From the IMG/VR virus record IMGVR_UViG_3300042196_000163, positions 1-64,000 of that record: DNA of 64,000 nucleotides. The stretch is one strand, 5' to 3'. Positions 3,472 through 48,849 of the stretch are shown one piece after another. The DNA comes from a virus (Duplodnaviria; Caudoviricetes). A program made the position numbers and the translations under genes. The notes under the pieces were generated by a model, which did no database searches, had not been told where the DNA came from, and saw nothing but the letters and a program-made list of their open reading frames with translations. How positions within the stretch are numbered: position 1 is the first letter of the stretch; each line of letters starts with the position of its first letter.

Positions 3472-3530
3472 ACCAAACCGACACAGCAAATCCTCGCAGC
3501 CACGAGGATCAGCGCAACTCCGAATCCCGA

Positions 3531-3609: not shown

Positions 3610-3615
3610 CACTTC

Positions 3616-4686: not shown

Positions 4687-4699
4687 CGAGAGGCCCGTT

Positions 4700-5668: not shown

Positions 5669-5767
5669 TTTCAGCCATCAACCCGTAAGGGTTTCCCGCT
5701 CAGCGAAGGGCGGAGACGTGGGCCGTGCGATTCCGCGCGGCCTTATCCGGACATTTGAGGAAAAACC

Positions 5768-7096: not shown

Positions 7097-7098
7097 GC

Positions 7099-7371
7099 GT
7101 GCGGAAGATCAGCGGGGACGTGAGGCTGGAACCACGCGGCGCAGGCCGCGCGGTTCTCGTCTTGCGGTCCGACACGGGCGAAACGTTCGGCATCGAACGC
7201 TCGCCCGACCAGCTCGCCGATCTGCGTGACGGGATCGACAAGATCCTCACCGCGGAGACCCAGCGCAGACGCGACGAAGCCGCCAAGCACGCGGCCGAGG
7301 AACGGCAGCGCAAGGCGGCGGACCAAGCCGACGAACCCAAAGCCGAGGCCGCCGCGCCGACGCAAAGCTGA
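7099..7371 (+). CDS. Hypothetical head-associated protein
   Basis: Compact ORF immediately after the capsid stop codon. Confidence 0.55.
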   Translation: MRKISGDVRLEPRGAGRAVLVLRSDTGETFGIERSPDQLADLRDGIDKILTAETQRRRDEAAKHAAEERQRKAADQADEPKAEAAAPTQS

Positions 7372-7394
7372 GCCGGGATTTCCGGCGGAAAGGA

Positions 7395-7844
7395 TTGAAC
7401 ATGCTTCCCCAACTGAAAAGCGTCGTCGCGGTCAACGCCGTCTCGGCGACCAACGGCGCCACGACCACCGGCATCATCGACACCCTCGGCTACGATTACG
7501 CGACCGTCGACATCATAGCCGCGACCGCGGATGTCGTCAGCAATGCGCCGTCGGTGCTGAAACTGCAGGAGGCCGACACCACCGATGCGACGAACTTCGC
7601 GGACATCGTCGGGCTGCGCGGCGGGACGGATTTCACGATCCCGAACGCCAACACAGCGGCGACCGCCGTGCTGCAGAATCTCTACAAGTTCAACGTCGAT
7701 ATGCGCGGCCGCAAACGCTATCTGCGGTCGGTCTACTCGCCCCGCACGACTCAGGTCTCGACCGTTCTCGCAAACATGGGCCGCGGCGAGCAGGCGCCGA
7801 TCACGGCCGCGAAGTGCAACGCGATGACGCTGGCCGAGGTCTAA
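7395..7844 (+). CDS. Capsid cement/decoration protein, Bbp16-like
   Basis: LQEADTTDATNFAD and RKRYLRSVY resemble BPP-1 Bbp16-type cement proteins; Thr-rich; located after the capsid gene. Confidence 0.6.
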   Translation: MNMLPQLKSVVAVNAVSATNGATTTGIIDTLGYDYATVDIIAATADVVSNAPSVLKLQEADTTDATNFADIVGLRGGTDFTIPNANTAATAVLQNLYKFNVDMRGRKRYLRSVYSPRTTQVSTVLANMGRGEQAPITAAKCNAMTLAEV

Positions 7845-7928
7845 GCCTCGATCAGCGCATCGACTACAGCCCAAGGCGTGCCGGCCCGCCAGCCGGCACG
7901 CCTCCTCCTCCCGCCAGAGGAAACTGCA

Positions 7929-9092
7929 ATGAAACTCGACCTCGGCGCCGGCCGCCAATCGCCGGACGGCTATATGCCGCTGGGCCGCGACCACGGCTCC
8001 GAAATCTTCCCGCTTCCATTCCCGGATTCGTCGATTGACGCTGTGCGCGCCAGTCACTGCCTGGAACATTTCCCCCACGCGCAGATCCCGGATGTCCTCG
8101 CGGAATGGGTGAGGGTTCTGAAACCCGGCGGCAGGCTCCGCATTGCGGTGCCGGACTTCGCAAAGATCGCCAAGCGCTACCAGGAAGGCGCAGTACAGCC
8201 GACCGAGGCCTACATCATGGGCGGCCAGGTCGACGCCAGCGACTTCCACAAAGCGCTATTCGACGAGCCGACTCTCTCTAAACTGCTCTCCGCCGCGGGC
8301 CTGCTGCTGATCCGCCGTTGGCACTCCGAGATCGAAGGCGACTGCGCGGCGCTGCCGATCAGCCTCAACCTCGAGGGGGCCAAACCACATCGGGCCGGCA
8401 TGTCTGTCTCGATGGTGATGAGCCTGCCGCGGCTGACCTGGACGGCAAACACGGCCTGCAATATGGAGGCCCTGAGCGAGCTGCAGCGCACGCTGCGCAT
8501 CACCCCGAGGTTCTACTCCGGCGCCTATTGGGAGCAATGTCTGGAACGCGCGATTGAGGAATCGATCGAGCAGGACAAGCCCGACGCGATCCTAACGCTG
8601 GATTACGACACCATCTTCACGCCAAACAACGTCCGCCGGCTGGTCTCGCTGATGATGGTCTATCCCGAAGCGGACGCAATCGCCCCAATCCAGGCCGCGC
8701 GTGGAAACGATCTGCCGCTGTTCACGATGGCCGCCTCGCCCGGCGCTGACGGCCCGGTGCCGCGCGAGATATTCGGCGACGATCTGACCCCTGTGCGCAC
8801 CGCGCATTTCGGTCTCACATTGCTGAGCGCTGCAAAGTTGCGTGCGCTGCCGAAGCCCTGGTTTCACAGCGTGCCCGCTCCAGATGGAACCTGGGGCAAC
8901 GGGCGCCGCGATGCGGACATCGCGTTCTGGCAGAAGTGGGCCGCCGCAGGCCACACGCTCTTCCTTGGAAACCGAGTCACGGTTGGCCATCTCGAGCTGA
9001 TGGTCAAATGGCCAGGCGCTGATCAAAGGGCGATTTACCAGGAAGCAACAGACTGGCGCAGCCACGGCGCGCCGGCCGATGCCTGGAAATGA
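7929..9092 (+). CDS. Class I SAM methyltransferase fused to a GT-A (GT2-like) glycosyltransferase domain
   Basis: N-terminal LDLGAG, SHCLEH, RVLKPGG; C-terminal LTLDYD (DxD), HFGLTLL, DADIAF, VTVGH. Confidence 0.8.
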   Translation: MKLDLGAGRQSPDGYMPLGRDHGSEIFPLPFPDSSIDAVRASHCLEHFPHAQIPDVLAEWVRVLKPGGRLRIAVPDFAKIAKRYQEGAVQPTEAYIMGGQVDASDFHKALFDEPTLSKLLSAAGLLLIRRWHSEIEGDCAALPISLNLEGAKPHRAGMSVSMVMSLPRLTWTANTACNMEALSELQRTLRITPRFYSGAYWEQCLERAIEESIEQDKPDAILTLDYDTIFTPNNVRRLVSLMMVYPEADAIAPIQAARGNDLPLFTMAASPGADGPVPREIFGDDLTPVRTAHFGLTLLSAAKLRALPKPWFHSVPAPDGTWGNGRRDADIAFWQKWAAAGHTLFLGNRVTVGHLELMVKWPGADQRAIYQEATDWRSHGAPADAWK

Positions 9093-15110: not shown

Positions 15111-18101
15111 TTGATCCCCTGGCACGGCCGCAGTTTCAAGGAGCGCCTTGACCGGGCGCCGCTCCCGCGCTGCGCGCTGCTGCCGGAGATCAGCATCCTG
15201 GTGGGCTGGGTGGCAACGCAGGGTGGCGCCCCGCCGCCAAACGAAGCGCCAACCGACATACAGATTTCGAGCGCGACAATTGTCTCCGACGCGGCGTCGG
15301 GCACCGTTGTAGGCGCTTTGACTGCAACCGACGTCGATGATTCGTCCTTCACCTGGGAAATCATCAACGGGAATACAAAATTTGAGCTGTCTTCCAGCAC
15401 CGGCCTCACCGTCAATCTTCGCCGCAGCGCGACCGGCACTCTCTCGATCGGGGTCAGTGAAAACGTTCAGATCAGGATCACGGACGGCGGCCTGAACACA
15501 TATCAAGAAACACTGTCGATCGCCGTTACCGATCCTGCGGAGGTCGTGCAGGTCGATACGCTCACTATCACCAATCTGTCCGGCTCGACGCTGGCCACGA
15601 ACTTCGTCACCGATATCTTTGGGCTGGCCTTTAAGAAAGGCGACATCCCGAGCGGCAGTTACCCGCGCATCGAACTCTCGGATGGCACGCTGTGCCCGGC
15701 GACGTTCTCGAACTTTTCCACCTGGTCGGATGGTTCGCTTAAAAACGGATATGGCTTCTGCCGCGTGCCAGAAAGCTTGGCTGGCTCAGGCACCAAGACA
15801 CTCAACATCAAGAACAATGGCACGGCGCCGAGTGCGTCGGGCTTCACCACCGCCAACATCAACGCGTCCGCCAGCCGCGATTTCAAGGTGACGCTGACCG
15901 GCGTTGAGAATCTGTCGGGCGCGTTCACGTCGGCGCTCAACCAAGGCATCACCGACAACGACAAGATCTACAAGGATTGCGACGGCGACGCAGGCGCGAT
16001 CTGGGTCGTAGAGGAAGAATGCTCCGCTCATAGCCATTTGCTTGCCCGCCACTACATCCGTGTCGGCAAGGACGCCAGCGCCGCCGTCTATGACTGGCTG
16101 TGGTGTCCGCTGGTCTTCCAGCCGAAGATGAACACGGCAACGCCCTTGCGCCGCGCTTTCCAAATGGCCGTCTTTGATGGCGCCTCCGAATTCTCGACGG
16201 GCTATCACGGGTCCGGGACGGTCACGTATGCCGGCACGGCGTCTCGCCTCAACTGGACAGCACACGGGATGGCCAGCGGCGAGGGCTTCACTGTTTCGAA
16301 TTCCGGTGGAGCGCTGCCGGCTGGCCTGACCGCAGGCACCGTTTATTTCGCCAGCGTCATAACCGCGAACCAGATTGAGGTCTGGTCGAAGCCCATGCTC
16401 GGCGAGAATGGGTCCGGGGCTCTGGTCGCGTTTTCGACGAGCGGCAGCGGCACGCACACCGGCCAGCGCGTGACGGCCCTGGATCTTCATGGCGGTGTGT
16501 ACGGTATGCAGACCGATGGGAAATGGCAGTGGGTGGCAGGTTCGGCCGCCGCGCGTCCCAACCTTTCAATTCTCCAGAGCGCGGCTTACCAGCACTCAAC
16601 CAAACTGTTCCCGCCGTGGGATTTGACGCTAACGCCCGATGCGACGGCCTCAATCAATTATGCGCCCAACACGGCCGGCGACCAGCGCCGCTTCATCGGC
16701 GCGGGCGGTGGGCATCCACAAATCGGGTTATGGCCGATGTGGTCCATCATTCAGCTTATGCGTCGCGACACGACAAGCGAGCGTGTCGCCCGCGTCAATG
16801 GCCTCGTCAGCGCGCACCTGAACATTTGGGTCTATGACGAGACGACCAGGCAGTTTCCCGTCTACAACAACAAGAGCTATAGCGGGTTGCCGGCGTCGAG
16901 CCTCACCGTTCGATACAACGGCAATGGGGAAAACATCTCGGGGATGAATTGGCCGCCGTCGCAATGGGATCTCTTCAGCCAGTACGACACGTCCCACAAC
17001 TGCTCGGCGCCGACGCACCAGTTTCTCGTGTTCGGGGGCCCCGTCTACCGCGACATCGTCGCGAGCATGGCGGGCATGAGCACGCTTGGACGATATACCG
17101 ATCCTGGCGAGGGCCGGCAGATCACGGTCGGCCCCACCACGTATTACGCCAATGCGCTGTTCTTTCCGTCGCTGCCGCGCGTCGATGCGTGGTCCTTCCG
17201 TGATCAGGTCGGCAGTTTCCTCTTGCCCGATGCGCATCCTGATGGCACGGCGAGCACTGCGCATCTCCAAGATATGGCGACCGGCACAGCGGATTGTTAC
17301 GTCGCTTATCGAAACACCAAATCGGCACAGTATCGCTCAAGCGGCATCTATGAAAGCGCCACCCGCGCCGATGGACAGGGAAGCCCGTGGGCATACCCCG
17401 GGTATTTTGGCTGGGCCCTTGCCTGGGGCGCCGGCATTTCCGAGGATGCGGACATCACGACGGTCGCGCAGCACGTCGCTAACTTCTACGCCGCTATCAC
17501 CACCGCGCAAAGCATGTATGGCCTGACGACAGCGTACATGATGGGCGTCAACAACACCGATCATGGAAGCAACGCCAACGATTTCAGCGAGGCGACGGTC
17601 ATCACCGATCCCACCCTGATCTGTTTCCAGGGCGGGATAACGGCCACGACGGATGCAGGGACGGACGTGGTCACGCTGGTTCTGCCTGCCGGATCGCCGA
17701 CATTGGCCGACAACGACGTGATCGCCGTCAACAGCATCTCTGGCGCGCTGCCGGGCGGCCTCAACGGCTTCCAGCCCTACTACATGCGGGACGTGTCGGG
17801 GAGTACCGGCAAAGTCGCTGCCACGCCGGGCGGCACGGCGATCAATATAACGACGACCGGGTCATTCAATCCGATGATGGCGTTCCCGGGCGAGACGATC
17901 CCCAGCGGGTCGGATGGCATCACGCCGGGCGACAACTACGAGGGCAGCTACAGCGCGCTACACCACGCGACGATGTGCACAATGCTCGCGAACGGACTGA
18001 CGGGCCTGACGACCGCGAAGTCACAAAACGATACGATCATCGCCAATGGCACGCACGACTATCAGGTGAACCCCATTCACGCCTATCAGCCGACCTTCTA
18101 G
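15111..18101 (+). CDS. Large putative virion protein with a cadherin-like N-terminal repeat and a domain paralogous to 12672-15098
   Basis: PTDIQIS...GTVVGALTATDVD (cadherin-like); two GALP(A/G)GL...YY/YF repeats; start uncertain. Confidence 0.75.
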   Translation: MIPWHGRSFKERLDRAPLPRCALLPEISILVGWVATQGGAPPPNEAPTDIQISSATIVSDAASGTVVGALTATDVDDSSFTWEIINGNTKFELSSSTGLTVNLRRSATGTLSIGVSENVQIRITDGGLNTYQETLSIAVTDPAEVVQVDTLTITNLSGSTLATNFVTDIFGLAFKKGDIPSGSYPRIELSDGTLCPATFSNFSTWSDGSLKNGYGFCRVPESLAGSGTKTLNIKNNGTAPSASGFTTANINASASRDFKVTLTGVENLSGAFTSALNQGITDNDKIYKDCDGDAGAIWVVEEECSAHSHLLARHYIRVGKDASAAVYDWLWCPLVFQPKMNTATPLRRAFQMAVFDGASEFSTGYHGSGTVTYAGTASRLNWTAHGMASGEGFTVSNSGGALPAGLTAGTVYFASVITANQIEVWSKPMLGENGSGALVAFSTSGSGTHTGQRVTALDLHGGVYGMQTDGKWQWVAGSAAARPNLSILQSAAYQHSTKLFPPWDLTLTPDATASINYAPNTAGDQRRFIGAGGGHPQIGLWPMWSIIQLMRRDTTSERVARVNGLVSAHLNIWVYDETTRQFPVYNNKSYSGLPASSLTVRYNGNGENISGMNWPPSQWDLFSQYDTSHNCSAPTHQFLVFGGPVYRDIVASMAGMSTLGRYTDPGEGRQITVGPTTYYANALFFPSLPRVDAWSFRDQVGSFLLPDAHPDGTASTAHLQDMATGTADCYVAYRNTKSAQYRSSGIYESATRADGQGSPWAYPGYFGWALAWGAGISEDADITTVAQHVANFYAAITTAQSMYGLTTAYMMGVNNTDHGSNANDFSEATVITDPTLICFQGGITATTDAGTDVVTLVLPAGSPTLADNDVIAVNSISGALPGGLNGFQPYYMRDVSGSTGKVAATPGGTAINITTTGSFNPMMAFPGETIPSGSDGITPGDNYEGSYSALHHATMCTMLANGLTGLTTAKSQNDTIIANGTHDYQVNPIHAYQPTF

Positions 18102-39099: not shown

Positions 39100-39915
39100 A
39101 TGGCGAACCCTCACTGGAGACCGGTCCGATCGATGGCAATGAAATTTACAACCGACCAGATCTTCGCGCTTTATGAAGCGGAAGCGAAGAAGCACGGCGA
39201 ATCCGGCGCCTCGACGATCCAGGACATACGCACACGCAAGTTGGAGATGGACGCGCTATTTCCCTATCTGCGCGACGGTCTGAAAGTGCTTGAGGTCGGC
39301 TGCGGCAACGGCTTCGTCGCTCGTGCCATGGTCGACCGGTTCAATATCGATCTTGACGCCATCGACTTCTCGCCCGATCTGATGGCGCTGGCCAAGCAGC
39401 GCTCATCGGCAGGCGGGTGCGGTCGCGTTAGCTTCAATCGGGGCAATATCCTCGCCTATCGCAAGCCGGGTATTTACGATCTCGTCTATAGCGAACGCTG
39501 CATTCAAAATCTCGTCTCGTGGGAGGAGCAGCAAAAGGGTCTGCGCAATATCGCGGCTTCGCTCAAATCAGGCGGCACCTTCGTGATGCTGGAATCGTTC
39601 TGGACCGGCCTCAACAACCTCAATGCCGCGCGCGCCGAACTCGGACTCGAGCCGATTCCCGAATCCTGGCACAACGTGTTCTTTCACGAAGATCGGACCA
39701 AGGAATACATGGAGCAAATCGGCTGTCGCTATGTCGATCAGAACTGCTTCCTGAGCGGCTATTATTTCGGCTCGCGCGTCCTACTGCCGGCGATGCTGCC
39801 TGCGGGTAAAAAGGCATCGTCAACATCGATCCTGAACGAATTCTTCTGTGCGCTTCCCGCCGCAGGCGATTTCTGCCCGATGAAAATCGTGCGCTTCGAG
39901 AAGCGCGGGGCTTGA
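39100..39915 (+). CDS. Class I SAM methyltransferase
   Basis: VLEVGCGNG, AIDFSPDL, SERCIQNL motifs. Confidence 0.88.
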   Translation: MANPHWRPVRSMAMKFTTDQIFALYEAEAKKHGESGASTIQDIRTRKLEMDALFPYLRDGLKVLEVGCGNGFVARAMVDRFNIDLDAIDFSPDLMALAKQRSSAGGCGRVSFNRGNILAYRKPGIYDLVYSERCIQNLVSWEEQQKGLRNIAASLKSGGTFVMLESFWTGLNNLNAARAELGLEPIPESWHNVFFHEDRTKEYMEQIGCRYVDQNCFLSGYYFGSRVLLPAMLPAGKKASSTSILNEFFCALPAAGDFCPMKIVRFEKRGA

Positions 39916-39925
39916 CCAAGAAGCT

Positions 39926-41035
39926 TCAGGCACTGCGGCGTATCTCGAAGAATCGCCGGACGGCGGCGATGACGTAGTCGACCTGCGCTTGCGTCAACTT
40001 CTCGTGGATTGGCAGGCACAGTATGCGCTGCACCACCTCGCGTCCGATCGGGCATGGCCCCTGCGCCGCACCGGCATATATGGGATGCTCGGGCATCAGG
40101 TGCGCATGATAGATCTTAGTTTCGATGCCCTGGCCGTCGAGCGCGGCCTTGAGCGCATCGCGCTGCGGCGTCTGGATTGTGTAGGTGTAGTACACATTGC
40201 GCGTCCCCGGCGGCTCCGGCGGCACCTGAACGATGTCGCCCAGCCCGCGGGTATAAGCGCTCGCCACGGCGCGGCGGCGCGCGATCGCGTCTTCGATGCG
40301 GCTTAACCGCTGCAGCAGCACGGCCGCCTGGATCGTGTCCATGCGGCCGTTGAACGTGACCGTCCGGCAGAACTCCTTGTCGAACATGCCGTGATAGCGT
40401 AATTCCTCCAGCGCCTGGCGCGTCTTGGCGTCGTGGCACAGCACGATTCCCGCCTCACCGAATGCGTTGAGCACCTTCATCGGGTTCATGCTGATGCAAC
40501 CGACCGGCCCGAACGAGCCCGCCTTGCGGCCATCACGCATAGCGCCGAAGGCGGGGGCGGCATCCTCGATCAGCACCAGGCCGCGTTTGCGCGTGATCGC
40601 CTCGATCTGCGCCATCCGGCACATTGCACCCGTGAAATGCACCGGCATGATCGCCTTAGTCCGCGCGGTGATCGCGCACTCGGCCGCCGCCGGGTCGATC
40701 AACATGTCGTCGCCGATATCGACGAAGACCGGCTTTGCGCCGGTCAGGGCCACGCCGCTCGCGGACCCAACGAAAGAGAGCGCTGGCAAGATCACTTCGT
40801 CGCCGGCTCCGATGCCGAGGCTGCGCAGGGCCAGAAACAACGCCGCCGTGCCTGAGCTGACACCGACAGCATAAGGGGTGCCGCAGTAGCGCGCGACCGC
40901 CGCCTCGAACTGCGCAAGTTCCGGCCCGTTGAGGATTCTTCCATGCTGTAGGATGCGATCAATTGCCGCCAGATAGGCGCCGCGCTCCTCCGCCGAATCG
41001 ACCCGGAGGTCGAGGAAGGGCACGATTATCTGCAC
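39926..41035 (-). CDS. DegT/DnrJ/EryC1/StrS family PLP-dependent sugar aminotransferase
   Basis: SSGTAAL, IEDAA, SMNPMK (PLP lysine), NGRMDTIQAA, LCLPIH. Confidence 0.95.
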   Translation of the reverse strand: MQIIVPFLDLRVDSAEERGAYLAAIDRILQHGRILNGPELAQFEAAVARYCGTPYAVGVSSGTAALFLALRSLGIGAGDEVILPALSFVGSASGVALTGAKPVFVDIGDDMLIDPAAAECAITARTKAIMPVHFTGAMCRMAQIEAITRKRGLVLIEDAAPAFGAMRDGRKAGSFGPVGCISMNPMKVLNAFGEAGIVLCHDAKTRQALEELRYHGMFDKEFCRTVTFNGRMDTIQAAVLLQRLSRIEDAIARRRAVASAYTRGLGDIVQVPPEPPGTRNVYYTYTIQTPQRDALKAALDGQGIETKIYHAHLMPEHPIYAGAAQGPCPIGREVVQRILCLPIHEKLTQAQVDYVIAAVRRFFEIRRSA

Positions 41036-41242
41036 ATGTGGCCCTTTTGCGTTTCGGATGGCGAGGGTTCCGACTTTCCGTCACCCACAACCCGCCAGCC
41101 TGCATCGCGCGCGGATCATGGCCGTCCGCAACGGCTCTTGCCAGGTTAAGCCGTCAACACCCTACCCAGATTCACCCGTTGAAGCGGTCGGTACGCTGGG
41201 CGCGCTGTCACTCCGCCTCGTTGGCCAGGCGGTGGGCCTTTA

Positions 41243-41431
41243 CTAGACGGTTGCGGCGAGGGCTTTGATCGCCTCTTCGCCGATGCTCTGGAAAATCTCA
41301 CACCAAATCTCGTCATCGTGAATGCCGAGCTGGTCATACCGGAAGCCGCGGCGATCATCGAGCGCGCCAAGGTAGATGGCCTTGCCAATGCGGCCCTCGC
41401 GCGTCTCGGGCGTGAAATCGTGATAACTCAT
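41243..41431 (-). CDS. Small hypothetical cassette gene
   Basis: Bounded by junction motifs on both sides. Confidence 0.6.
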   Translation of the reverse strand: MSYHDFTPETREGRIGKAIYLGALDDRRGFRYDQLGIHDDEIWCEIFQSIGEEAIKALAATV

Positions 41432-41446
41432 CCTTCTCGGCCTTTC

Positions 41447-41684
41447 CTAGATCTTGAACGTTGCTTTGTGGGATGCGACGACATCGGCCGGCGGAACAAC
41501 TGACCGCGGGTGGTCGTTCCAGCGCCACCATTGCCACCACCGGGGCGGCGTCCAGCCACTCAGCAGCGCCAGCCGAAGCACCTGAAACCATCCCTCATGC
41601 AGCCGGTCCTCTGGCACGGCATCGCCGACGATCTTCGTGTCACCGCTGCGGCTGGACCATCGGAATGAATAGCTGGTGAGCACG
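41447..41684 (-). CDS. Small Trp-rich hypothetical cassette gene
   Basis: GTG start after AGGAAAGGCCGCGCC; the stop lies within the next junction motif. Confidence 0.6.
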
Positions 41685-41702
41685 GCGCGGCCTTTCCTGT
41701 AA

Positions 41703-41954
41703 TTACTCCGGCACCTTGCCGGTTCGTTCAAAAATCCACTGCTTTGCGGACCAAGCGAATTGAACCCAATAGGCGCTGTGCTTGAGGCCGCCGAGCGAGG
41801 CCGCCCCACCAGATTTGATCCTTTCAGCCGGCGGCACAGGGAAGGGCCCCCAGTCCCAATCGTGGGGAAACGTGGCGTCCGGATCGATGTCGACCGCGGC
41901 GCACATGGCACGCGCCAGATCTTCGATCTTCTTGGGAATGTTCCACTGTTCCAC
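41703..41954 (-). CDS. Small hypothetical cassette gene
   Basis: GTG start after CTAGGAAAGGCCGCGCC. Confidence 0.6.
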   Translation of the reverse strand: MEQWNIPKKIEDLARAMCAAVDIDPDATFPHDWDWGPFPVPPAERIKSGGAASLGGLKHSAYWVQFAWSAKQWIFERTGKVPE

Positions 41955-41967
41955 GGCGCGGCCTTTC

Positions 41968-42150
41968 CTAGGGCTTCAGGATGCGGTCGAGGTGGGCGGC
42001 CGCCTCGTCATGGGTGACATAGCGAGCCACCACCTTATTGCCGTGCAACACCTGATATTCCAAACCGCGCTTGGTCTGGCGCGTATAGAGCATATAGGTC
42101 CGGGGCGGGCGGCGGGTCTTGGCGGGCCCGGCTGCAATTTGAGTTTCCAT
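41968..42150 (-). CDS. Small hypothetical gene, first of the leftward arm
   Basis: ATG 42150 (METQIAAG...); the stop TAG is part of a junction motif. Confidence 0.55.
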   Translation of the reverse strand: METQIAAGPAKTRRPPRTYMLYTRQTKRGLEYQVLHGNKVVARYVTHDEAAAHLDRILKP

Positions 42151-42200
42151 GCAACTTACGATACTCCCGGCTTGCATCTTGTCAATAGCGATGTCACACT

Positions 42201-42224
42201 GTGCCACCCAATCAGTTATGGCAC
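42201..42224. promoter_or_regulatory. Candidate serine-recombinase binding site
   Basis: GTGCCA-N12-TGGCAC inverted repeat in the divergent intergenic region just before the recombinase ATG. Confidence 0.45.
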
Positions 42225-42233
42225 TTAATTCCT

Positions 42234-42785
42234 ATGCGTCGTGGCTATATCCGTGAGAGCCCCCGTCATCCAGCCCGTTACCAGCGCGAAGCCCTTGAGG
42301 CGGCTGGCTGTCGGGCTATCTACGAGCAGAACGGGGAGGCGCTATCCGCGTTCGTCCGTGGCCTGCGCAAGGGCGATATCGTTGTCGTCGACGGGCTGCA
42401 TCGCCTGGCGGCCACTCGGCCAGACTTCCACCGCGCAATACACGCCATCGAAAGGAAGGGCGCGCAGGTGATGGACGCCAGGTCCGGCCAGATCGTTGAT
42501 TCCAAGTGCGTGGCGCTGGTTGCTGAGGCCTTTAGCAACATCGCCGGCGAGGCCCGCATCAAGGACGCCGCGGCGCTTGGCGAGCAGGGCGGGCGCCCCA
42601 AGATCAAGCTTAAGCGGGATCAGCGCGAGATCTGGCGCGATCTCACAATCCCCTCGAATGCGGAGGCGGCTGACATTATCGGCGTCTCGACACGGACGCT
42701 CTACCGCCGCTACGGACCATCGGGTCGCCCGGCCGGTTGGCCGGAGCGGCTGACGACCGGCCGTAAACCCAAACCCTCTAAATAA
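42234..42785 (+). CDS. Small serine recombinase (resolvase/invertase family)
   Basis: GYIRES (catalytic Ser), GDIVVVDGLHRLA, C-terminal HTH GVSTRTLYR. Confidence 0.88.
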   Translation: MRRGYIRESPRHPARYQREALEAAGCRAIYEQNGEALSAFVRGLRKGDIVVVDGLHRLAATRPDFHRAIHAIERKGAQVMDARSGQIVDSKCVALVAEAFSNIAGEARIKDAAALGEQGGRPKIKLKRDQREIWRDLTIPSNAEAADIIGVSTRTLYRRYGPSGRPAGWPERLTTGRKPKPSK

Positions 42786-42795
42786 GGCGCGGCTG

Positions 42796-43059
42796 ATGGA
42801 CCTCGAACAGAAAAAGCAGCTGCTGCAGAACTGGCGCGGTCGGCGCTTGCTGGCGTGCCGCGCAGCTGACGACTTGTGTGCCGTCGTCGCCGCCCTTGGC
42901 ATCGAGGATGCGTCCGAGCTGCCGCCAGAGGGTGGTCCGCGCCCGAAGCCATCCGAGGGCATGATCGCGGAGCTGCAGAACTCGGTTGTCAATGTTAAGC
43001 GGCTGATCCTGCTGATCAATGATGGCCACGTTTCACGATCGAAGCTCAACGGCTTCTAG
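42796..43059 (+). CDS. Small hypothetical cassette gene
   Basis: Flanked by junction motifs. Confidence 0.65.
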   Translation: MDLEQKKQLLQNWRGRRLLACRAADDLCAVVAALGIEDASELPPEGGPRPKPSEGMIAELQNSVVNVKRLILLINDGHVSRSKLNGF

Positions 43060-43073
43060 GAAAGGCGCGATTC

Positions 43074-43292
43074 ATGAGCACGAGTGCAGCCCCAAATCAG
43101 AACTGCCAATGGTGCGGCCAGCTGCACCCGGGCGTTGTCTGCTCGCGGATCGCGGCAATTGAGTATCAGCCTGACGGCGTGACGGTGAAGCGGATCGAGT
43201 TTCATCCGCCAGCGGCGAATTTCGATCTCGGCCGCGTTCTCGTCGGTGGACATCAGCGCGTGGTTGGCTTCACCCCCGAATCAGACCTGTAG
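43074..43292 (+). CDS. Small Cys/His protein (CxxC...H...C)
   Basis: Flanked by junction motifs. Confidence 0.65.
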   Translation: MSTSAAPNQNCQWCGQLHPGVVCSRIAAIEYQPDGVTVKRIEFHPPAANFDLGRVLVGGHQRVVGFTPESDL

Positions 43293-43307
43293 GAAAGGCG
43301 CACTTCG

Positions 43308-43544
43308 ATGACTACTTCCGTCACGATCAAGAACAATGGCCCTTATCGCGTCAACGTGAATGAGGTCGAGCCGGTCGAAGGCCGCCGCCTGGAAGGTGCG
43401 GAGCAAACGGTCAACTCGCATTGCCTCGCCGTCGGCGAGGAGATCACGTTGAATCTCTGGGGTGCTAATCACTATCTATGCGTCATCGAGACAAATGACG
43501 TGGATACGCCGGCCGAAAAGCTGGCAGCAGCGGGCATCCCTTAA
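43308..43544 (+). CDS. Small hypothetical cassette gene
   Basis: Flanked by junction motifs. Confidence 0.65.
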   Translation: MTTSVTIKNNGPYRVNVNEVEPVEGRRLEGAEQTVNSHCLAVGEEITLNLWGANHYLCVIETNDVDTPAEKLAAAGIP

Positions 43545-43566
43545 TCTCTAGATAAGGCGCGATCCC

Positions 43567-43752
43567 ATGAAAGACATGGCAAAGAATGACTGGCCGCCAA
43601 GGGCGAGTGCATCGCGTTTTAGAGATGGAACGCAAAGGCGCGGATCGACTGGACAGCTTTGGGAGGCCCGAAACGGTCAATGGCATAGGGTTGACGATCC
43701 TGAGCGCGGTCGCCTCGTTCCGCTGCACGGATCTGGGCCGGATAACATCTAG
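43567..43752 (+). CDS. Small hypothetical cassette gene
   Basis: Flanked by junction motifs. Confidence 0.6.
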   Translation: MKDMAKNDWPPRASASRFRDGTQRRGSTGQLWEARNGQWHRVDDPERGRLVPLHGSGPDNI

Positions 43753-43765
43753 GAAAGGCGCGCCC

Positions 43766-44023
43766 ATGATCGATATGGCAAAACATCGGCTCGAGCACGG
43801 GGATGAGTTCCCCTACGACGCGCCCGACTTGTGGTGGGGTAGCGACAAGGCCGCGCCCCCGCCGCCGAAGGATTGGGCGCATCGTGCCGCGCGCGGCATC
43901 CTGGCCGATCTCGGTGATCGCCACACTATCAAGCAGGGCTTCCGCGAGATCGACGAGGAAGTCCGCGCGGAGCTCGTTGAATCGCTGGCGGATATCATCC
44001 GCGCAGCTGCACCCTCTAACTAA
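43766..44023 (+). CDS. Small hypothetical cassette gene
   Basis: ATG 43766 after a junction motif. Confidence 0.65.
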   Translation: MIDMAKHRLEHGDEFPYDAPDLWWGSDKAAPPPPKDWAHRAARGILADLGDRHTIKQGFREIDEEVRAELVESLADIIRAAAPSN

Positions 44024-44031
44024 GGCGCGCC

Positions 44032-44169
44032 GTGGGCTACCTCATTCTCCTCGCAACACCGTTGATCGTGTGGCTGGCGGTCTACGTTGTCTTGGTGCTG
44101 CCGGCGCGCGAGGATTTCAAGCGCGTCACCGGCCGCACGGCTCCGAAGCACTGGCTGTTCCCGTTCTAG
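44032..44169 (+). CDS. 45-aa membrane peptide, absent from the ORF track
   Basis: GTG...TAG between two junction motifs; MGYLILLATPLIVWLAVYVVLVLPAR... Confidence 0.6.
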   Translation: MGYLILLATPLIVWLAVYVVLVLPAREDFKRVTGRTAPKHWLFPF

Positions 44170-44181
44170 GAAAGGCACGAT

Positions 44182-44376
44182 ATGCCGAGCTGCCTCCGAA
44201 ACAAGGAATGCTCCTGGTGCGGCCAGCCTTTGACGCAGGCCGCCAAGGGACATTGCGGCGCGATCTATGATCGCTCGGTGTGTTACTGGGTGCCGGCGAT
44301 CAAAGAGCACGGGCCGCGCGAGGCTATTAAGCGGGCGCGGAAAACCGTGCCAGTGCCCGCCGCTCAACCCTCATAG
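44182..44376 (+). CDS. Small Zn-finger-like protein
   Basis: CSWC...HC...C; flanked by junction motifs. Confidence 0.6.
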   Translation: MPSCLRNKECSWCGQPLTQAAKGHCGAIYDRSVCYWVPAIKEHGPREAIKRARKTVPVPAAQPS

Positions 44377-44387
44377 AAAAGGGACCA

Positions 44388-44555
44388 ATGGCGAAGTGCT
44401 GCGATTGCGAGCGGGAAAGGCTGGAGGATGGCTCGCTCCTCGGCCGCGTGCATTGCTGCTGGCGCTGCTACCAGGCAGTCGAGCAGGGTGCCGCGCCGCA
44501 GCACACCCCTGAGTGCGACGCCCGCCACGCTGCTCGCCAGCAACCCTCTAGGTAA
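44388..44555 (+). CDS. 55-aa Cys-rich protein, absent from the ORF track
   Basis: MAKCCDC...HCCWRCY; flanked by junction motifs. Confidence 0.55.
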   Translation: MAKCCDCERERLEDGSLLGRVHCCWRCYQAVEQGAAPQHTPECDARHAARQQPSR

Positions 44556-44562
44556 GGAACCA

Positions 44563-45075
44563 ATGCTGGCCGGCTTCAAAACGAAGAACCATCCGCAGCA
44601 GGTAAAGACCCGCGGCGCGGATGACGAGGTCGACCAGCGGATCACGCCGGACTGGCTGTTCCGCGACTATCATGCGCGCTTCAATTTCACGATCGACGTG
44701 GCCGCCAACGAGGCCAATAGAAAGCTCGATCGACACTACGACCTCGCGGCCAATGGCCTCCGGCAACCGTGGGCGCCTGAGCGCGTCTGGTGCAATCCTC
44801 CGTACAGCAATGTGCCGGCGTGGATGTTCAAGGCTCACCAGGAATTCGAGCGCGGGTGTCCGGTGATCGTCATGCTGCTGCCGTCGAACCGGACCGAACA
44901 GAAGTGGTGGCAGCAATTTGTCGAGCCGCATCGCGATCGCGCCGGCGGGTTCATGCGCACCGAGTTCCTGTCCAAGCGCATCAACTTCGGCGCGCCCGGC
45001 AACGAGGGCGCGGTCTACAACAGCAGCCCACCGTTCGGCTTGGTAGCCGTCATCTTCGAAACACCTTCAAGGTAA
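44563..45075 (+). CDS. Phage DNA N6-adenine methyltransferase (Dam-like)
   Basis: TPDWLF, FTIDVAA, WCNPPYS motifs; ATG 44563. Confidence 0.9.
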   Translation: MLAGFKTKNHPQQVKTRGADDEVDQRITPDWLFRDYHARFNFTIDVAANEANRKLDRHYDLAANGLRQPWAPERVWCNPPYSNVPAWMFKAHQEFERGCPVIVMLLPSNRTEQKWWQQFVEPHRDRAGGFMRTEFLSKRINFGAPGNEGAVYNSSPPFGLVAVIFETPSR

Positions 45076-45082
45076 GGAACCG

Positions 45083-46489
45083 ATGATCTACGGCTCAGTC
45101 TGCAGCGGCATCGAGGCGGCAACTGCCGCTTGGCATCCGCTGGGCTGGCGGCCGGCGTTCTTCAGCGAGATCGACAAATTCCCGCGCGCCGTGCTGGCGC
45201 ACCACTACCCGACCGTGCCGCTGCACGGCGACTTCACCACGATCGAGGCCGGACAATATGCAGCTATCGATGTTCTCGTCGGAGGCACGCCCTGCCAGTC
45301 GTTCAGCATCGCCGGACTCCGCGGCGGACTGGCCGATGATCGTGGCAACCTGGCACTCGAATACCTTCGCCTTGCTCAACGCCTTCGGCCCCGCTGGTTG
45401 GTTTGGGAGAATGTCCCCGGCGTTCTATCAAGCCTATCCCATGAAGCGCCCGATCCATGTGCGCCGCCGCCACCAGTGGATATGGAGCTCGACGGACAAG
45501 AAGTGGCAACTGAAGACGACTACGGAAGCGAAGAGCTACACGCCCTCCAGTGCTTCCTGGCCGGAGTTTCAGAACTCGGGTATGGGTGGTCCTACCGGGT
45601 ATTTGACGCTCAGTTCGCCGGAGTTCCACAGCGCCGCCGTCGCGTCTTCGTTGTCGGATATCTTGGAGACTGGCGACCTGCCGCAGCGGTTCTATTTGAG
45701 CCCGAAAGCCTGCGCGGGGATCCTGCGCCTCGCCGAGAAGCGGGGGAAGGAATTGCCGACCCGCTTGCGGCTGGCACTCGCAGCAACGGCGGGTATCGGA
45801 ACGACGCCGACACCGCAGCGAGCCTTGTCGCCAGCAATGGCGGACTGAGCGGCAAGGACGATCCCGCCGGCCGCGCCGACGCCGACGGCGGCAATAACAG
45901 CTCTGGGCCGATTGATGTCGCGACCGCGCGCAACGCCCATGCGGGACCGCATGGGCGGCTGGATTTCGAGAGCGAGACGTTCGTGACACATGCGCCGCGC
46001 GCCGACGGATTCGATGCGAGCGAGGACGGGACGGGACGGGGAACGCCACTGTGGCCCGTGTGCTACTCGATCATGCCCATGAACAGCGGCACCGATTACA
46101 AGGCGCGCGAGGTTGATGTTGCCCAGCCCGTGATGGCCGGCGGACCTGTCGGCGGGAATCAGGGCGGCGACTACATCGTGTTCTCGGCCAAGGACCACGG
46201 CGCCGATGCGGGCGAGATGTCGCCAACGCTGCGCGCCGGACCGCACCACAAGTCGCACGCGAATGCCGGGGTCATGCCGGCAGTGCTGTCGCCCGGGATG
46301 GCCGTGCGGCGCTTGACGCCACGGGAGTGCGAGCGCCTGCAGGGCTTCCCCGATGACTACACGCTGATCCCCTATCGCGGCAAGCCGGCGCAGGACTGGC
46401 CGCGCTATAAGGCGCTGGGCAACTCGATGGCGGTGCCGGTCATGCGCTGGATCGGCCAGCGCATCGATCTGGTCAACCGCTGCCTATAA
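45083..46489 (+). CDS. DNA cytosine-C5 methyltransferase
   Basis: SVCSGIEA, GGTPCQSFS, WENVPG, PQRRRRVF, LTPRECERLQGFPD, GNSMAVPV. Confidence 0.96.
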   Translation: MIYGSVCSGIEAATAAWHPLGWRPAFFSEIDKFPRAVLAHHYPTVPLHGDFTTIEAGQYAAIDVLVGGTPCQSFSIAGLRGGLADDRGNLALEYLRLAQRLRPRWLVWENVPGVLSSLSHEAPDPCAPPPPVDMELDGQEVATEDDYGSEELHALQCFLAGVSELGYGWSYRVFDAQFAGVPQRRRRVFVVGYLGDWRPAAAVLFEPESLRGDPAPRREAGEGIADPLAAGTRSNGGYRNDADTAASLVASNGGLSGKDDPAGRADADGGNNSSGPIDVATARNAHAGPHGRLDFESETFVTHAPRADGFDASEDGTGRGTPLWPVCYSIMPMNSGTDYKAREVDVAQPVMAGGPVGGNQGGDYIVFSAKDHGADAGEMSPTLRAGPHHKSHANAGVMPAVLSPGMAVRRLTPRECERLQGFPDDYTLIPYRGKPAQDWPRYKALGNSMAVPVMRWIGQRIDLVNRCL

Positions 46490-46501
46490 TTAAGGAGTTC
46501 C

Positions 46502-46846
46502 ATGCGCCTCGCTGATCTCGATCCCCGATGGCTCCTGCGCGGCGAGGAACGCTGCGGCCTGATCTTCCGTTGCCCGCACTGCCGGAATGTCTGGCTGACC
46601 TGCTTCTTTGCGACCTTGCCCAGGGAGGAGCAGTTCCGCATCTGGGGGAACAACGGCGGCGAGCTCGACGAAGATGGCTGGCCGGAGAAGGGCGACACCG
46701 TGGTGTTCTGCAGCCCCAAGGCGAAGTGGTCGATCATCGCCGGCTCGACGTTCGAGGATCTGAGCGTGACGCCCTCGGTTGATGCCAGCGCATCGGGACA
46801 CTGGCATGGTCACCTCACTGCCGGCGCGATCACCGGCGGGCTATAA
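46502..46846 (+). CDS. Second DUF6527-like metal-binding protein
   Basis: FRCPHC...LSVTPSVDAS...HWHGHLTAG. Confidence 0.6.
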   Translation: MRLADLDPRWLLRGEERCGLIFRCPHCRNVWLTCFFATLPREEQFRIWGNNGGELDEDGWPEKGDTVVFCSPKAKWSIIAGSTFEDLSVTPSVDASASGHWHGHLTAGAITGGL

Positions 46847-46860
46847 TTAAGGAGCGTCAG

Positions 46861-47112
46861 GTGACCGACATGATTCAGCGGATCGCGCGGGCGCTTGCTG
46901 CCTTACGAAAAGAGGAAGATCGGGCCGCTGGATTTCCAATCGTTGAGAGCCGATATGCCCCGCCGTTGGCGATGGATATCGGTGCCGCTGAGTGGGCCAT
47001 TGCAGCGCTCGATCAAGGCGGCTATGTCATCGTGCATCGGGACATCAGCCCGTTTAAGACGACAGAGGCCGCAGCGGCGGTCTATGAATCATATCTTAAG
47101 ATTCGTCGATAG
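46861..47112 (+). CDS. Small hypothetical gene, last of the rightward arm
   Basis: GTG after a junction motif; followed by a terminator. Confidence 0.55.
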   Translation: MTDMIQRIARALAALRKEEDRAAGFPIVESRYAPPLAMDIGAAEWAIAALDQGGYVIVHRDISPFKTTEAAAAVYESYLKIRR

Positions 47113-47166
47113 GCAGCCCGCGCGCCGAGGAAAGTCGTTTCCCGAATTCGCCGTCTCAGGTCAAGC

Positions 47167-47209
47167 GAAGGCCGCCGATCCCGGAAGGGGCCGGTGGCCT
47201 TTTCGTTTT
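47167..47209 (+). terminator. Rho-independent terminator
   Basis: AAGGCCGCCGATCCC-GGAA-GGGGCCGGTGGCCTT followed by TTCGTTTT. Confidence 0.7.
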
Positions 47210-47340
47210 CCGGCCCCGTGGGCGCCGCTGCCGCCGCCACCGGTGGGCACTAGGGGCCAGCGCATGGCCCGCGCCAGCGCCCCCGGCGCGGGGCGACGTG
47301 GGGCGGTTCAGCGGCACCGGTGCCCGGTCCCGGAAATCCA

Positions 47341-47522
47341 TCCAACTCCGGGCGGGTTTCGGCCGCTTTTATGGGCTGGAAAGTTGGACGGAATGGCGGT
47401 TTCCCGCGGGGTAGCAGCGAATTACAAAACCGCTGCTCTACCGCTGAGCTAATCCGGCATTTCAAGGACTTAGCATATTTTCGTCCAACTCACTTGGCGG
47501 CCGCCAGTTGGATGCGTCCAAC
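47341..47522. other. attP with a symmetric core and candidate arm-type sites
   Basis: Core (minus strand) AGCAGCG-GT-TTTGTAA-TT-CGCTGCT at 47413-47437; GTTGGA/TCCAAC at 47341, 47383, 47484, 47507, 47517; adjacent to the integrase 3' end. Confidence 0.8.
47422..47458 (-). tRNA. 5' half only of tRNA-Thr(UGU); a fragment within attP, not a full tRNA
   Basis: GCCGGATTAGCTCAGCGGTAGAGCAGCGGTTTTGTAA gives the acceptor 5' strand, D-arm and anticodon loop; no T-arm or acceptor 3' strand follows. Confidence 0.85.
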
Positions 47523-48593
47523 TTTGTCCCGCGCGCGGGAGCGTTTTAGCTTGCCCATTGCCGTCTTGGCAAACCGGTCATCGGGCAGGACGTAGACCGA
47601 CACCACGCCGCGGGTCTTGTGGCCGGTGATGGCCCGGATCTCGTCGTCGGTGCAGCCGGCCCGGCCGAGCGCGGTCGCCACGGTGCGGCGCAGATCCGCG
47701 AAATGCAGATCCTTGGGCAGCTCGGCCTGTTCCCGGATCCAGGCGAACCAGTGCTGGAAGTCGCTTTCCTGATAGGCCCGGCCGGTGACCTCGCTGACCA
47801 CGATCTGGACGGCCGCGGCCTTGGGCGCGGCGTCGATCGCCTGGCGCAGATCGGGCAGGATCGGAATCAGCATCTCCTTTGCCGTCTTGGCCTGCGTCAG
47901 CGCAATGTGCCGGCCTCGGTCGGCCGAGCGTGGCATGGTGAGAATGTCGCCGGGCCTTTGCCCGGTGCACCACGCCAGCATGACCGCCAGCGCGATCGAG
48001 CGGCGGCCCTCCTTTTCGGCCTGGCGACAGAACGTCACGCGCTCGTTGTCGGTCCACATCCGCGCCCTTGGTTTCGGCGCCTTGATGCGCAGCTTGCGCG
48101 CGGGATGGATGTCGATCCAGCCTTCATCCTCAGCGACGCTCAGCAGCTTGCTCAGCGTGGCGGCGCAGTGCCGTGCCACGTTGGCCCCGCGCTTATTCTT
48201 CATCTCCCGCAGCCACGTCTTGACCGATTTGCGCGTGATCTCCGCGATCGGGATGTCACCGACCCAAGCCTCGACGATAGCCGCATAATATTTATGGTCG
48301 CGCTGCGTGCGCGGCTTAAGCGCGTTAAAGGCTTCGTTTTCCGGGCTCTCGTAAAGTCGCCGGAGCGCCTTGAGCGAGCCCTCCGGTGCCAGCGCCTCGG
48401 CCGGTTGGCCGGCGTACCAGCGGTCGAGGCCGTCGTTCAGATCCTCGGCTTCCTTGATGGCCGCAGCGGGGCTGTCCGACAGGCGCCTGACAAGGAAGCC
48501 CGCGGCGACCAGCTTCTCTGTCGGCTGCCAGTAAAAGGCCGGGCCGCGCCTACGCGGTTTTTCGACCAGGTATCGGACCTTGATTTTTCCCAC
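47490..48593 (-). CDS. int: Tyrosine integrase
   Basis: TGQRPGD (R), FADLRRT, ITGHK, terminal Y; likely GTG start at 48593. Confidence 0.92.
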   Translation of the reverse strand: MGKIKVRYLVEKPRRRGPAFYWQPTEKLVAAGFLVRRLSDSPAAAIKEAEDLNDGLDRWYAGQPAEALAPEGSLKALRRLYESPENEAFNALKPRTQRDHKYYAAIVEAWVGDIPIAEITRKSVKTWLREMKNKRGANVARHCAATLSKLLSVAEDEGWIDIHPARKLRIKAPKPRARMWTDNERVTFCRQAEKEGRRSIALAVMLAWCTGQRPGDILTMPRSADRGRHIALTQAKTAKEMLIPILPDLRQAIDAAPKAAAVQIVVSEVTGRAYQESDFQHWFAWIREQAELPKDLHFADLRRTVATALGRAGCTDDEIRAITGHKTRGVVSVYVLPDDRFAKTAMGKLKRSRARDKVGRIQLAAAK

Positions 48594-48849
48594 GCGCGCG
48601 CTCCAGCAGCTCGGCCTCGAAGTCGCGCTTTTCCCCGGGAGGGCATTCCAGCCCGTAGCGGCGCGCGAGCCACGCGTCAACCTGTGCTTTCGAAAACGTG
48701 TTGTAAACGGCGTCGGGCCTGGGGAAATCGGGGATAGCGGGGATATGTCCACGCAACCAGGACTCGCTGCGCCGAAATGCGTATTCCGCCGCCTCGGCCC
48801 ACGTCATGGTGGCCGGCTCGAAACGGTGGCGGTGGCGGCGCGCAGTCAT
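48550..48849 (-). CDS. Excisionase-like wHTH protein
   Basis: MTWAEAAEY...FPRP...VDAWL; overlaps the int start. Confidence 0.65.
   Translation of the reverse strand: MTARRHRHRFEPATMTWAEAAEYAFRRSESWLRGHIPAIPDFPRPDAVYNTFSKAQVDAWLARRYGLECPPGEKRDFEAELLERARGKNQGPIPGRKTA

Follow-up and report, generated by a model that had tools for sequence, protein, structure and literature searches.

The small accessory genes in a 5.7-kb island of a temperate phage, which is present as IMG/VR virus record IMGVR_UViG_3300042196_000163 (74,029 bp, G+C content ~63%), are joined to each other by copies of a short sequence element, here referred to as the linker. The window that was analyzed is the first 64 kb (64,000 nucleotides [nt]) of this record, and the single run that holds DNA of the record is a sediment metagenome. 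The island comprises 17 genes, 15 of which are linker-joined, arranged in two divergent arms, with genes L1 to L4 in the left arm and with the gene of a resolvase-like protein, followed by genes R1 to R12, in the right arm (Table 1). The linker is retained in two related phages in which the genes between the linkers are almost wholly different. The best explanation of these data, to which we assign a probability of about 0.5, is that the linker couples the translation of successive genes and is also the seam of homology-assisted gene exchange.

Occurrence and position of the linker

The linker has a length of 12 to 16 nt and consists of TCTAG or TCTAA, two variable bases, AAGG, and a tail that is specific for the arm and for the position within it. 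The positions with the highest information content are T(-7), T(-5), A(-4), and AAGG, with ~17 bits in all. The 16 motif copies quoted in a preliminary description of this DNA are all present. The strict pattern NTMTARNWAAGG is matched 11 times, as compared with 0.05 matches expected from shuffled sequences, and the looser core TARNWAAGG has 16 copies in the whole record, 14 of which are located within 41.2-46.9 kb. Scanning the record with a 16-nt weight matrix at a threshold of at least 12 bits identifies 18 sites, 16 of them inside the island, an enrichment that is partly circular, as the matrix was trained on island sites. The motif is absent from the other ~80 genes of the phage. It is, as had been supposed, confined to the array and not equally frequent genome-wide. 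The sole strong linker-like site outside the island (17 bits, 15629-15644) lies inside a late-region open reading frame (ORF) of 996 amino acids (aa) and is probably a chance match. In IMG/VR, the exact 14-nt linker is found in 35 contigs, with one match in each, which is at chance level, and no further multi-copy arrays were obtained.

The copies are found at gene junctions and are oriented with transcription in both arms, and the linkers of one arm are inverted with respect to those of the other. AAGG is positioned 5-9 nt upstream of the start codon in all 15 non-first genes. L1 and the resolvase-like gene, each the first of its arm, lack both the motif and a Shine-Dalgarno site. Each linker is an isolated, asymmetric site, having no dyad symmetry and no partner half-site. 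The motif had been described as present at every listed junction, and this is correct except for the leftmost copy (41233-41248), which has no gene behind it.

Sequence conservation at the junctions

The preliminary description also proposed that each motif contains or abuts the upstream stop codon and supplies the ribosome-binding site of the downstream gene, in agreement with the geometry of the junctions. The upstream stop codon is the TAG or TAA of the motif at 10 junctions and a TAA overlapping AAGG at four, and it is located 0-2 nt before the motif at the other two. The stop-to-start gaps in the island are 7-22 nt long, with zero overlaps. TGA, which is the majority stop codon elsewhere, is used by none of the 17 island genes, as compared with 46 of the 79 other phage genes (Fisher P = 4e-6).

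The T-C-T-A of the linker is kept in all three registers of the upstream reading frame. Consequently, four unrelated proteins terminate in Pro-Ser-Lys/Asn/Arg, encoded by the linker; in R5, the Pro-Ser-Asn tail begins where the conserved core of its family ends. The preservation of these bases in three registers argues for conservation at the nucleotide level.

Duplex energies were calculated with an assumed 16S rRNA tail, ...CCUCCUUUCU-3'. The mean energy of the linkers is -7.3 kcal/mol, as compared with -6.1 kcal/mol at the other phage genes (one-sided P = 0.06), and the latter value becomes -8.1 kcal/mol if the best start is chosen for each gene. Pairing with the rRNA is poor for some copies, for example for the two with TAAGGCGCG. 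The possibility that the linker is merely a strong Shine-Dalgarno site was rejected, because these pairing energies are unexceptional. Judged from its sequence, the linker would appear to be more than a stop codon plus a Shine-Dalgarno site.

Linkers are kept and genes are replaced in related phages

The same linker is found in two relatives, the loci L041 and L048, whose central proteins are 65% and 53% identical to that of the window, respectively. With the island-trained matrix at a threshold of at least 11 bits, nine sites are found in the equivalent 4-kb module of L041, as compared with three in the other 12 kb of this locus, and three sites are found in L048. In both relatives, the left arm has GGCC-type tails, often with a GTG start codon, and the right arm has GGCGCG-type tails. 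The order of the right-arm tails of L041 (GGCGCG, GGCACG, GGGACC, GGGACC, GGGAACC, and GGAG) is the order seen in the window, where successive tail types are present in seven, three, and two copies.

The cargo between these linkers is not preserved. It had been anticipated that the gene content of related phages varies, and indeed the motif is kept and the same genes are not retained: in an all-versus-all comparison of the proteins of the window and of the relatives, only the resolvase-like gene and R11 are in common. At the DNA level, these two genes are 70% and 96% identical, respectively, between the window and L041. The 5' edge of the 96% identical R11 block is 2 nt ahead of the ATG and directly follows linkers that differ in subtype. 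At its other end, the block includes the next linker and the first codons of R12; a 4-codon stump is all that L041 keeps of this gene. In matching slots, L041 has genes for a DUF551 protein, a helix-turn-helix (HTH) protein, and an N6/N4 methyltransferase.

The island architecture recurs in more distant relatives (33-52% identical), each of which has uniform junctions of its own, with a stop codon always next to a ribosome-binding site. These junctions are a stop codon plus AATAGGAGC in L043 and L049, AAGGCCCGAA on the left arm of L042, and TGAGGCCGGGAC in L051. No linker is found in L045, L047, L054, L057, and L060, which are phages that have homologues of R11 or R5 and lack the resolvase-like island, and this indicates that the linker goes with the resolvase-like island and not with its cargo. 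DNA searches of the island against sequenced phage isolates found no similar region, only a 187-bp methyltransferase stretch being matched.

Indications that the linker is a unit of DNA

Several single genes of the island are placed between similar linkers. R11 is flanked by perfect direct repeats of 14 nt, and L2 is flanked by perfect direct repeats of 18 nt, which include the GTG start codon; the Dam gene is enclosed by J9 and J10, which can be aligned over 20 nt with 85% identity. The earlier remark that neighboring junctions share subtypes is substantiated by a permutation analysis, in which adjacent linkers are found to be more alike than in permuted order (P = 0.006). Vestigial linkers that have no gene attached are found at the array ends, one in the window (41233-41248) and two in L041. 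The repeats, the likeness of adjacent copies, and the vestigial copies would fit exchange or unequal crossing-over at the linkers.

Enzymes of the RecT kind have been implicated in relaxed homologous recombination between temperate phages (PMC3945230). The RecT-family protein of this phage is a candidate engine for short-homology exchange and might act in this way at the linkers. The microhomology-driven version of gene shuffling that the preliminary description offered is plausible, in view of the RecT gene, the 14- and 18-nt repeats around single genes, and the mosaic seam at the linker.

The resolvase-like protein and the divergent control region

The resolvase-like gene heads the right arm in seven of the seven arrays, and it is the sole gene common to all of them. 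The sequence scores of its product are marginal (Pfam Resolvase, 25.2 bits versus a cut-off of 23.3; PHROG DNA invertase, 38.5 bits). The AlphaFold model has a mean predicted local distance difference test score of 77.8, being ~90 in the N-terminal domain, and Foldseek matches it to the Sin, gamma-delta, and Tn3 resolvases (E = 1e-7 to 1e-5) and to Gin (E = 6.6e-4). The predicted structure, having a catalytic-domain fold, a long E-helix, and a C-terminal HTH, is that of a small serine recombinase.

In Tn3 resolvase, six residues are crucial for catalysis, being Y6, R8, S10, D36, R68, and R71 (PMC2794168). The window protein retains Y6, R8, S10, and R68, including the Y, R, and S of the GYxRxS motif, and it has an alanine at the position of R71 and a glutamine at the position of D36. 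In place of the DRLGR motif it has HRLAA, and the loop that spans D36-R45 is shortened. The family comprises eight members, which are the window protein and seven relatives found among 5.8 billion clustered proteins. At the nucleophile position the residues across the family are S/T/T/S/T/S, with a threonine in three of the six full-length members; R8 is replaced by an aspartate in the nearest homologue, and the R71 position varies. The HTH, the GGRP arm, and R68 are conserved across the family. Protein and alignment searches of viral and genome collections gave marginal matches only, and in isolate phages only canonical invertases of ~30% identity are found. This pattern, in which catalytic residues are lost or variable and the HTH is kept, points to a recombinase-derived DNA-binding protein, not to an enzyme selected for catalysis, and the resolvase-like protein is probably a degenerate serine recombinase that is catalytically inactive.

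The arms diverge, as was described previously, but their origin is not in the resolvase gene itself; it is the promoter region (42151-42233) that separates L1 from the resolvase-like gene. In the leftward direction, a sigma-70-like promoter (TTGACA-16-TATCGT) extends from 42185 to 42158. L1 is probably leaderless, because this predicted promoter ends ~7 nt before its ATG. The sole copy of an inverted repeat, GTGCCA-N12-TGGCAC (6-N12-6), is found ahead of the resolvase-like gene, the start codon of which is preceded by a ATTCCTATG context that is common to L041 and L048. No linker copy is found in this region by the weight-matrix scan. Most likely, the resolvase-like protein is a putative HTH regulator of the divergent promoters, since it heads the right arm in the seven arrays and follows the 6-N12-6 inverted repeat. 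A 20-nt word of the divergent promoter (42181-42200, common to L041) was also searched for in metagenome and viral contigs and was discarded, as it gave one unrelated sequence twice (L052, 2760-2779; L053, 1312-1331), with ~1 exact match expected by chance.

Proposed function of the linker and alternative explanations

In the proposed mechanism, this two-armed accessory-gene island would be transcribed outward from one divergent control region, with a first gene in each arm that has no ribosome-binding site and with each later gene attached by a linker. The linker would end the upstream reading frame and set an AAGG-type Shine-Dalgarno sequence 5-9 nt before the next start codon. With the stop codon and the Shine-Dalgarno site so near to each other, the terminating ribosome could restart on the next small gene. 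The linker would also be inherited as a unit of DNA, as the final codons of unrelated genes overlap with it and as its subtype and position are kept while the genes between are replaced, and such inheritance would make it a seam for gene gain, loss, and swap among related phages. The exchange at this seam would most likely proceed by general or short-homology recombination, the phage encoding RecT, and the resolvase-like protein would regulate the divergent promoters and would not move genes.

A number of observations weigh against this mechanism. The argument for translational coupling is one of geometry alone, the mRNA accessibility that is predicted for the motif is only modestly above average (~90th percentile, with low absolute values), which is weak evidence, and the 16S tail used is an assumed one. 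Only two relatives with the same linker type were found in the collections searched, and the seam statistics are derived from very few events. No linker-joined rearrangement, deletion, or circle was observed in the data, which are assembled contigs from one run; the few joints that are listed for these contigs are off the linkers and have short sides, and they favor neither view. The sole clear recent exchange, which concerns R11, begins after the linker and has its edges outside the shared linker sequence, and its 3' edge is a few codons into the next gene; illegitimate recombination plus selection fits this equally well. Finally, the same subtype order in two diverged phages means that the linkers are old, which weakens the reading of the flanking identical repeats as marks of recent insertion.

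It is conceivable, although unlikely, that the linker is recognized by a trans-acting regulator of the island, in which case gene swapping would be a by-product. The candidate factors are a resolvase-derived HTH protein that would act on single asymmetric DNA sites in a stoperator-like manner, an RNA-binding translational repressor, and an mRNA nuclease. Such a factor would account for the conserved positions that are unpaired with the 16S rRNA while the pairing strength is ordinary, and for the orientation of all copies with transcription in both arms. It would also account for junctions that are uniform within a phage and differ between lineages, as in co-evolution with a phage-encoded factor. 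The gene of the resolvase-like HTH protein is the only one shared by the seven arrays; stoperators and start-associated sequences (SAS) are precedents (PMC3029335, PMC3203893). However, the tight spacing of 5-9 nt to the start codon is not needed for a DNA-binding site, and a copy would be expected in the divergent promoter region, the place for repressor action, where there is none. Proteins of the serine-recombinase type bind dyad-symmetric sites as dimers, whereas the linker is lone and asymmetric, and the recognition-helix sequences of the family do not clearly track the linker type. The conservation of T-C-T in three registers, the complete avoidance of both TGA stops and stop-start overlaps, a motif that is missing from the other ~80 phage genes, and the subtype order that is kept while every gene between changes are all left unexplained if the linker is an ordinary stop codon plus ribosome-binding site. 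According to this explanation, which also seems improbable, the likeness of the copies would come from shared descent (local duplications and block acquisitions) and from a common constraint, being the need for start regions that are A-rich and unstructured in a genome with 63% G+C, and the turnover would come from illegitimate recombination and selection for intact genes. The fixed spacing and the AAGG/GGAG core do fit a Shine-Dalgarno site, distant relatives use more canonical AGGAG junctions, the edges of the R11 block are placed outside the shared linker, and illegitimate recombination is the standard model of phage mosaicism (PMC3029335).

The recombinase-driven capture of the preliminary description would be a site-specific cassette platform, in which a serine recombinase cuts and rejoins the linkers, thereby capturing, excising, and inverting cassettes in an integron-like manner. 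This is considered highly improbable. Although the one conserved island gene encodes a serine-recombinase fold with an HTH, although Y, R, and S of GYxRxS are present in the window copy, and although the linkers of opposite arms are mutually inverted, the claim does not agree with the missing R71 and D36, the shortened loop between D36 and R45, the Thr nucleophile in half of the six full-length members, the Asp at R8 in the nearest homologue, and a linker that has neither dyad symmetry nor paired half-sites. Rather doubtful, too, is the idea that the linker is a dedicated seam, at which 14-18-nt linkers would be annealed by RecT-type activity, possibly via excised mini-circles as with promoter-early stem-loop (PeSL) cassettes, and for which the dead resolvase would be kept as a linker- or promoter-binding organizer. 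If true, this would be a cassette exchanger that needs no site-specific recombinase, and the conserved boundary sequences that the modular theory of phage evolution postulates would then have a concrete example that is open to testing.

Comparison with known systems

The preliminary description mentioned, as an alternative, a shared translational site like the SAS of the Cluster K mycobacteriophages, and these are indeed the closest described analogue. SAS are 13-nt asymmetric repeats, present in 11-19 copies before non-structural genes only and located 3-7 nt before the start codons (PMC3203893, Pope et al. 2011). They sometimes hold the upstream stop codon, their conserved positions are unable to pair with the rRNA, and their function is still unknown (PMC3203893; 188-genome survey, PMC12699233). 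The linker is likewise a short asymmetric repeat in one orientation, a few nucleotides before the start codons of non-structural genes of unrelated families, and it has a Shine-Dalgarno core plus conserved non-pairing positions and often contains the upstream stop codon. It differs in its consensus, which is TCTAGGAAAGGCGCG-like as compared with GGGATAGGAGCCC (at most two mismatches) in SAS, and in belonging to another phage and host group. The linker is, moreover, strictly a junction element that is absent before the first genes of the operons, and it occurs in two divergent arms with arm-specific tails; no ESAS (the extended inverted-repeat partner) was noticed beside the linkers on reading the sequence. 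By analogy, the linker would work like SAS without being a member of this group.

Among repeated junction elements, it is for the PeSL cassettes of T4-type phages that a role in gene shuffling is best documented; gains, losses, and replacements of genes are explained by recombination between copies, and both mini-circles and exchange have been shown (PMC2839356, Arbiol et al. 2010). Both elements are repeated regulatory junction elements in a hyperplastic region of small ORFan genes, and the cargo turnover with retained linkers and flanking perfect repeats, which is known here from assembled contigs, fits a PeSL-type reshuffling. However, PeSLs are transcription units with a promoter and a terminator, whereas the linker consists of 12-16 nt in a 7-22-nt gap, has no promoter hexamers and no stem-loop, and would act, if at all, in translation. 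A scan for promoters and terminators at the junctions found no PeSL-like units. The modular theory of phage evolution invokes short conserved boundary sequences, which are reported to be absent from most mosaic boundaries (PMC3029335). The linkers are conserved gene-boundary sequences that could guide homologous module exchange, and the C-terminal codons common to unrelated genes resemble the Island3 gp67/gp68 case (PMC3029335); they differ in being present at every junction of one island, with an exchange that is deduced from two relatives only.

Stoperators of the Cluster A mycobacteriophages are bound by the immunity repressor, are found genome-wide, include the early-promoter operator, and have no fixed distance to start codons (PMC3029335, PMC9283540). 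They are comparable to the linker as many asymmetric sites on the 13-nt scale, in short intergenic gaps and oriented with transcription, but the linker is confined to one island, is absent from the promoter region, and is at a fixed distance to the start codons. Unlike an integron, the island has no IntI, attI, or attC; the sole tyrosine recombinase is the phage integrase beside attP, and no hairpin arms are visible in the 7-22-nt gaps. The small serine recombinases (gamma-delta/Tn3 resolvase and Gin/Hin invertases) have the same three-part architecture as the resolvase-like protein, with weak but significant sequence matches, and differ from it in that crucial catalytic residues are missing or variable here and no paired crossover sites are recognizable.

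Accessory and counter-defence genes of phages turn over very fast, which is usually attributed to random illegitimate recombination. Linker-joined islands provide a tractable test of whether conserved boundary sequences guide gene exchange, and they could show what SAS do, which is unresolved 14 years after their description. Added to the previous knowledge are a strict junction grammar, with motif-free first genes and without TGA stop codons or overlaps, arm- and position-specific subtypes that outlive their genes, and a recombinase-derived protein that has apparently lost catalysis and is still encoded by the one fixed island gene. The linker could also help, as a handle for searches, to find unknown accessory genes in metagenomes.

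Genes of the island and genomic setting

The features of the island and its surroundings are listed in Table 1. The right arm after the resolvase-like gene consists of 12 genes (42796-47112, plus strand).

Table 1. Coordinates of the island genes, linkers, and neighboring features
Feature	Position	Strand	Remarks
Terminal left-arm linker, vestigial	41233-41248	-	No gene behind it; no start codon at the usual spacing
L4, 62 aa	41243-41431	-	ORF
Linker L3/L4, GGCCG	41437-41452	-	Motif match, repeat family
L3, 78 aa	41447-41683	-	ORF
Linker L2/L3, GGCCGCGCC + GTG	41687-41702	-	L2 stop TAA abuts linker
L2, 83 aa	41703-41954	-	ORF
Linker L1/L2, subtype GGCCGCGCC + GTG	41958-41973	-	18-nt stretch perfectly repeated at next junction
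L1, 60 aa	41968-42150	-	ORF
Divergent control region between L1 and resolvase-like gene	42151-42233	.	Promoter, inverted repeat
Resolvase-like HTH protein, 183 aa, first right-arm gene	42234-42785	+	Pfam, PHROG, AlphaFold, Foldseek
J1, GGCGCG, resolvase-like gene/R1	42776-42791	+	Stop is TAA overlapping AAGG; linker encodes C-terminal Pro-Ser-Lys
R1	42796-43059	+	ORF
J2, GGCGCG	43054-43069	+	Stop is linker TAG; repeat family D1
R2	43074-43292	+	ORF
J3, GGCGCA	43287-43302	+	Motif and repeat match
R3	43308-43544	+	ORF
J4, GGCGCG	43546-43561	+	R3 stop TAA 2 nt upstream of linker; linker TAG unused as stop
R4	43567-43752	+	61-aa ORF; weak GC3 (G+C at third codon positions), 0.55; coding status uncertain
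J5, GGCGCG	43747-43762	+	Motif and repeat match
R5	43766-44023	+	Conserved unnamed family, 43 clusters
J6, GGCGCG	44014-44029	+	Linker encodes R5 C-terminus, Pro-Ser-Asn
R6	44032-44169	+	ORF
J7, GGCACG	44164-44179	+	Motif and repeat match
R7	44182-44376	+	ORF
J8, GGGACC	44371-44386	+	Motif match
R8	44388-44555	+	ORF
J9, GGAACC, before Dam gene	44546-44561	+	Repeat family D2; encodes C-terminal Pro-Ser-Arg
R9, Dam-type N6-adenine methyltransferase	44563-45075	+	
J10, GGAACC, after Dam gene	45066-45081	+	D2; encodes C-terminal Pro-Ser-Arg
R10, C5-cytosine methyltransferase	45083-46489	+	
J11, GGAG, before R11	46484-46499	+	D3; first 14 nt are those of J12
R11, PF20137/DUF6527	46502-46846	+	
J12, GGAG, after R11	46841-46856	+	D3; kept in L041 with 4-codon remnant of next gene
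R12	46861-47112	+	Weak GC3, 0.58; coding status less sure
Right border of island	47380-48752	-	tRNA-like attP core (~47380-47460) and tyrosine integrase (47490-48752; Pfam Phage_integrase)
RecT-family single-strand annealing protein, 506 aa	55522-57042	-	Pfam RecT, E = 1.7e-18

L1 to L4 (41243-42150) have no Pfam or PHROG match. The G+C contents of the codon positions of these left-arm ORFs are coding-like (GC1>GC2<GC3), and their stop-to-start gaps are 13-19 nt long. In the right arm, the two DNA methyltransferases (R9 and R10) are orphan, and the island genes for which Table 1 gives no family are ORFans in Pfam and PHROG searches. R2 and R7 share an N-terminal Cys-x-Trp-Cys-Gly-Gln (43091-43122 versus 44196-44227, 75% nucleotide identity over 32 nt) and may be diverged paralogues of a small zinc-ribbon protein.

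The homologues of R5 are 85-97 aa long, which fits a start at 43766; a public gene call has a 132-aa product at 43586-44023 that overlaps R4 in another frame. The R5 homologues are found in early-region arrays with Acb2/Tad1-, AcrF8-, Lar-, and DUF551-type genes. In L057 (a logan SRR16308652 contig), the region 2639-8216 is a long early-region array that has R5 homologues together with Acb2/Tad1-hairpin, Lar restriction-alleviation, AcrF8, and DUF551 domains and a PF20137 gene. In view of this neighborhood, the R5 family may be a marker of counter-defence islands. The cargo of the island is probably of the accessory, counter-defence type, as predicted from the genes that it contains.

The island is located between the late genes, which occupy the plus strand at ~0-39 kb, and the attP-int region. 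ARAGORN called no tRNA at the attP core, which is tRNA-like by reading the sequence. After R12, at 47117-47210, a GC-rich imperfect hairpin is followed by a T-rich run, which is a possible terminator of the right arm; a consensus scan gave no call here. Beyond the integrase are leftward early genes, including the RecT-family gene. The RecT-family protein is unusually long, with the RecT domain at residues 94-278 and the remaining residues without a match.

On the other side of the island, a methyltransferase and a DegT-type aminotransferase are encoded at 39.1-41.0 kb. These are a class-I S-adenosylmethionine methyltransferase (plus strand) and a DegT/DnrJ/EryC1-type aminotransferase (minus strand), located at 39100-41035 between the lysis region and the left arm. 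The start of the aminotransferase gene is preceded by AAAAGGGCC, which resembles the tail of a left-arm linker, and the leftward operon may therefore continue into this gene.

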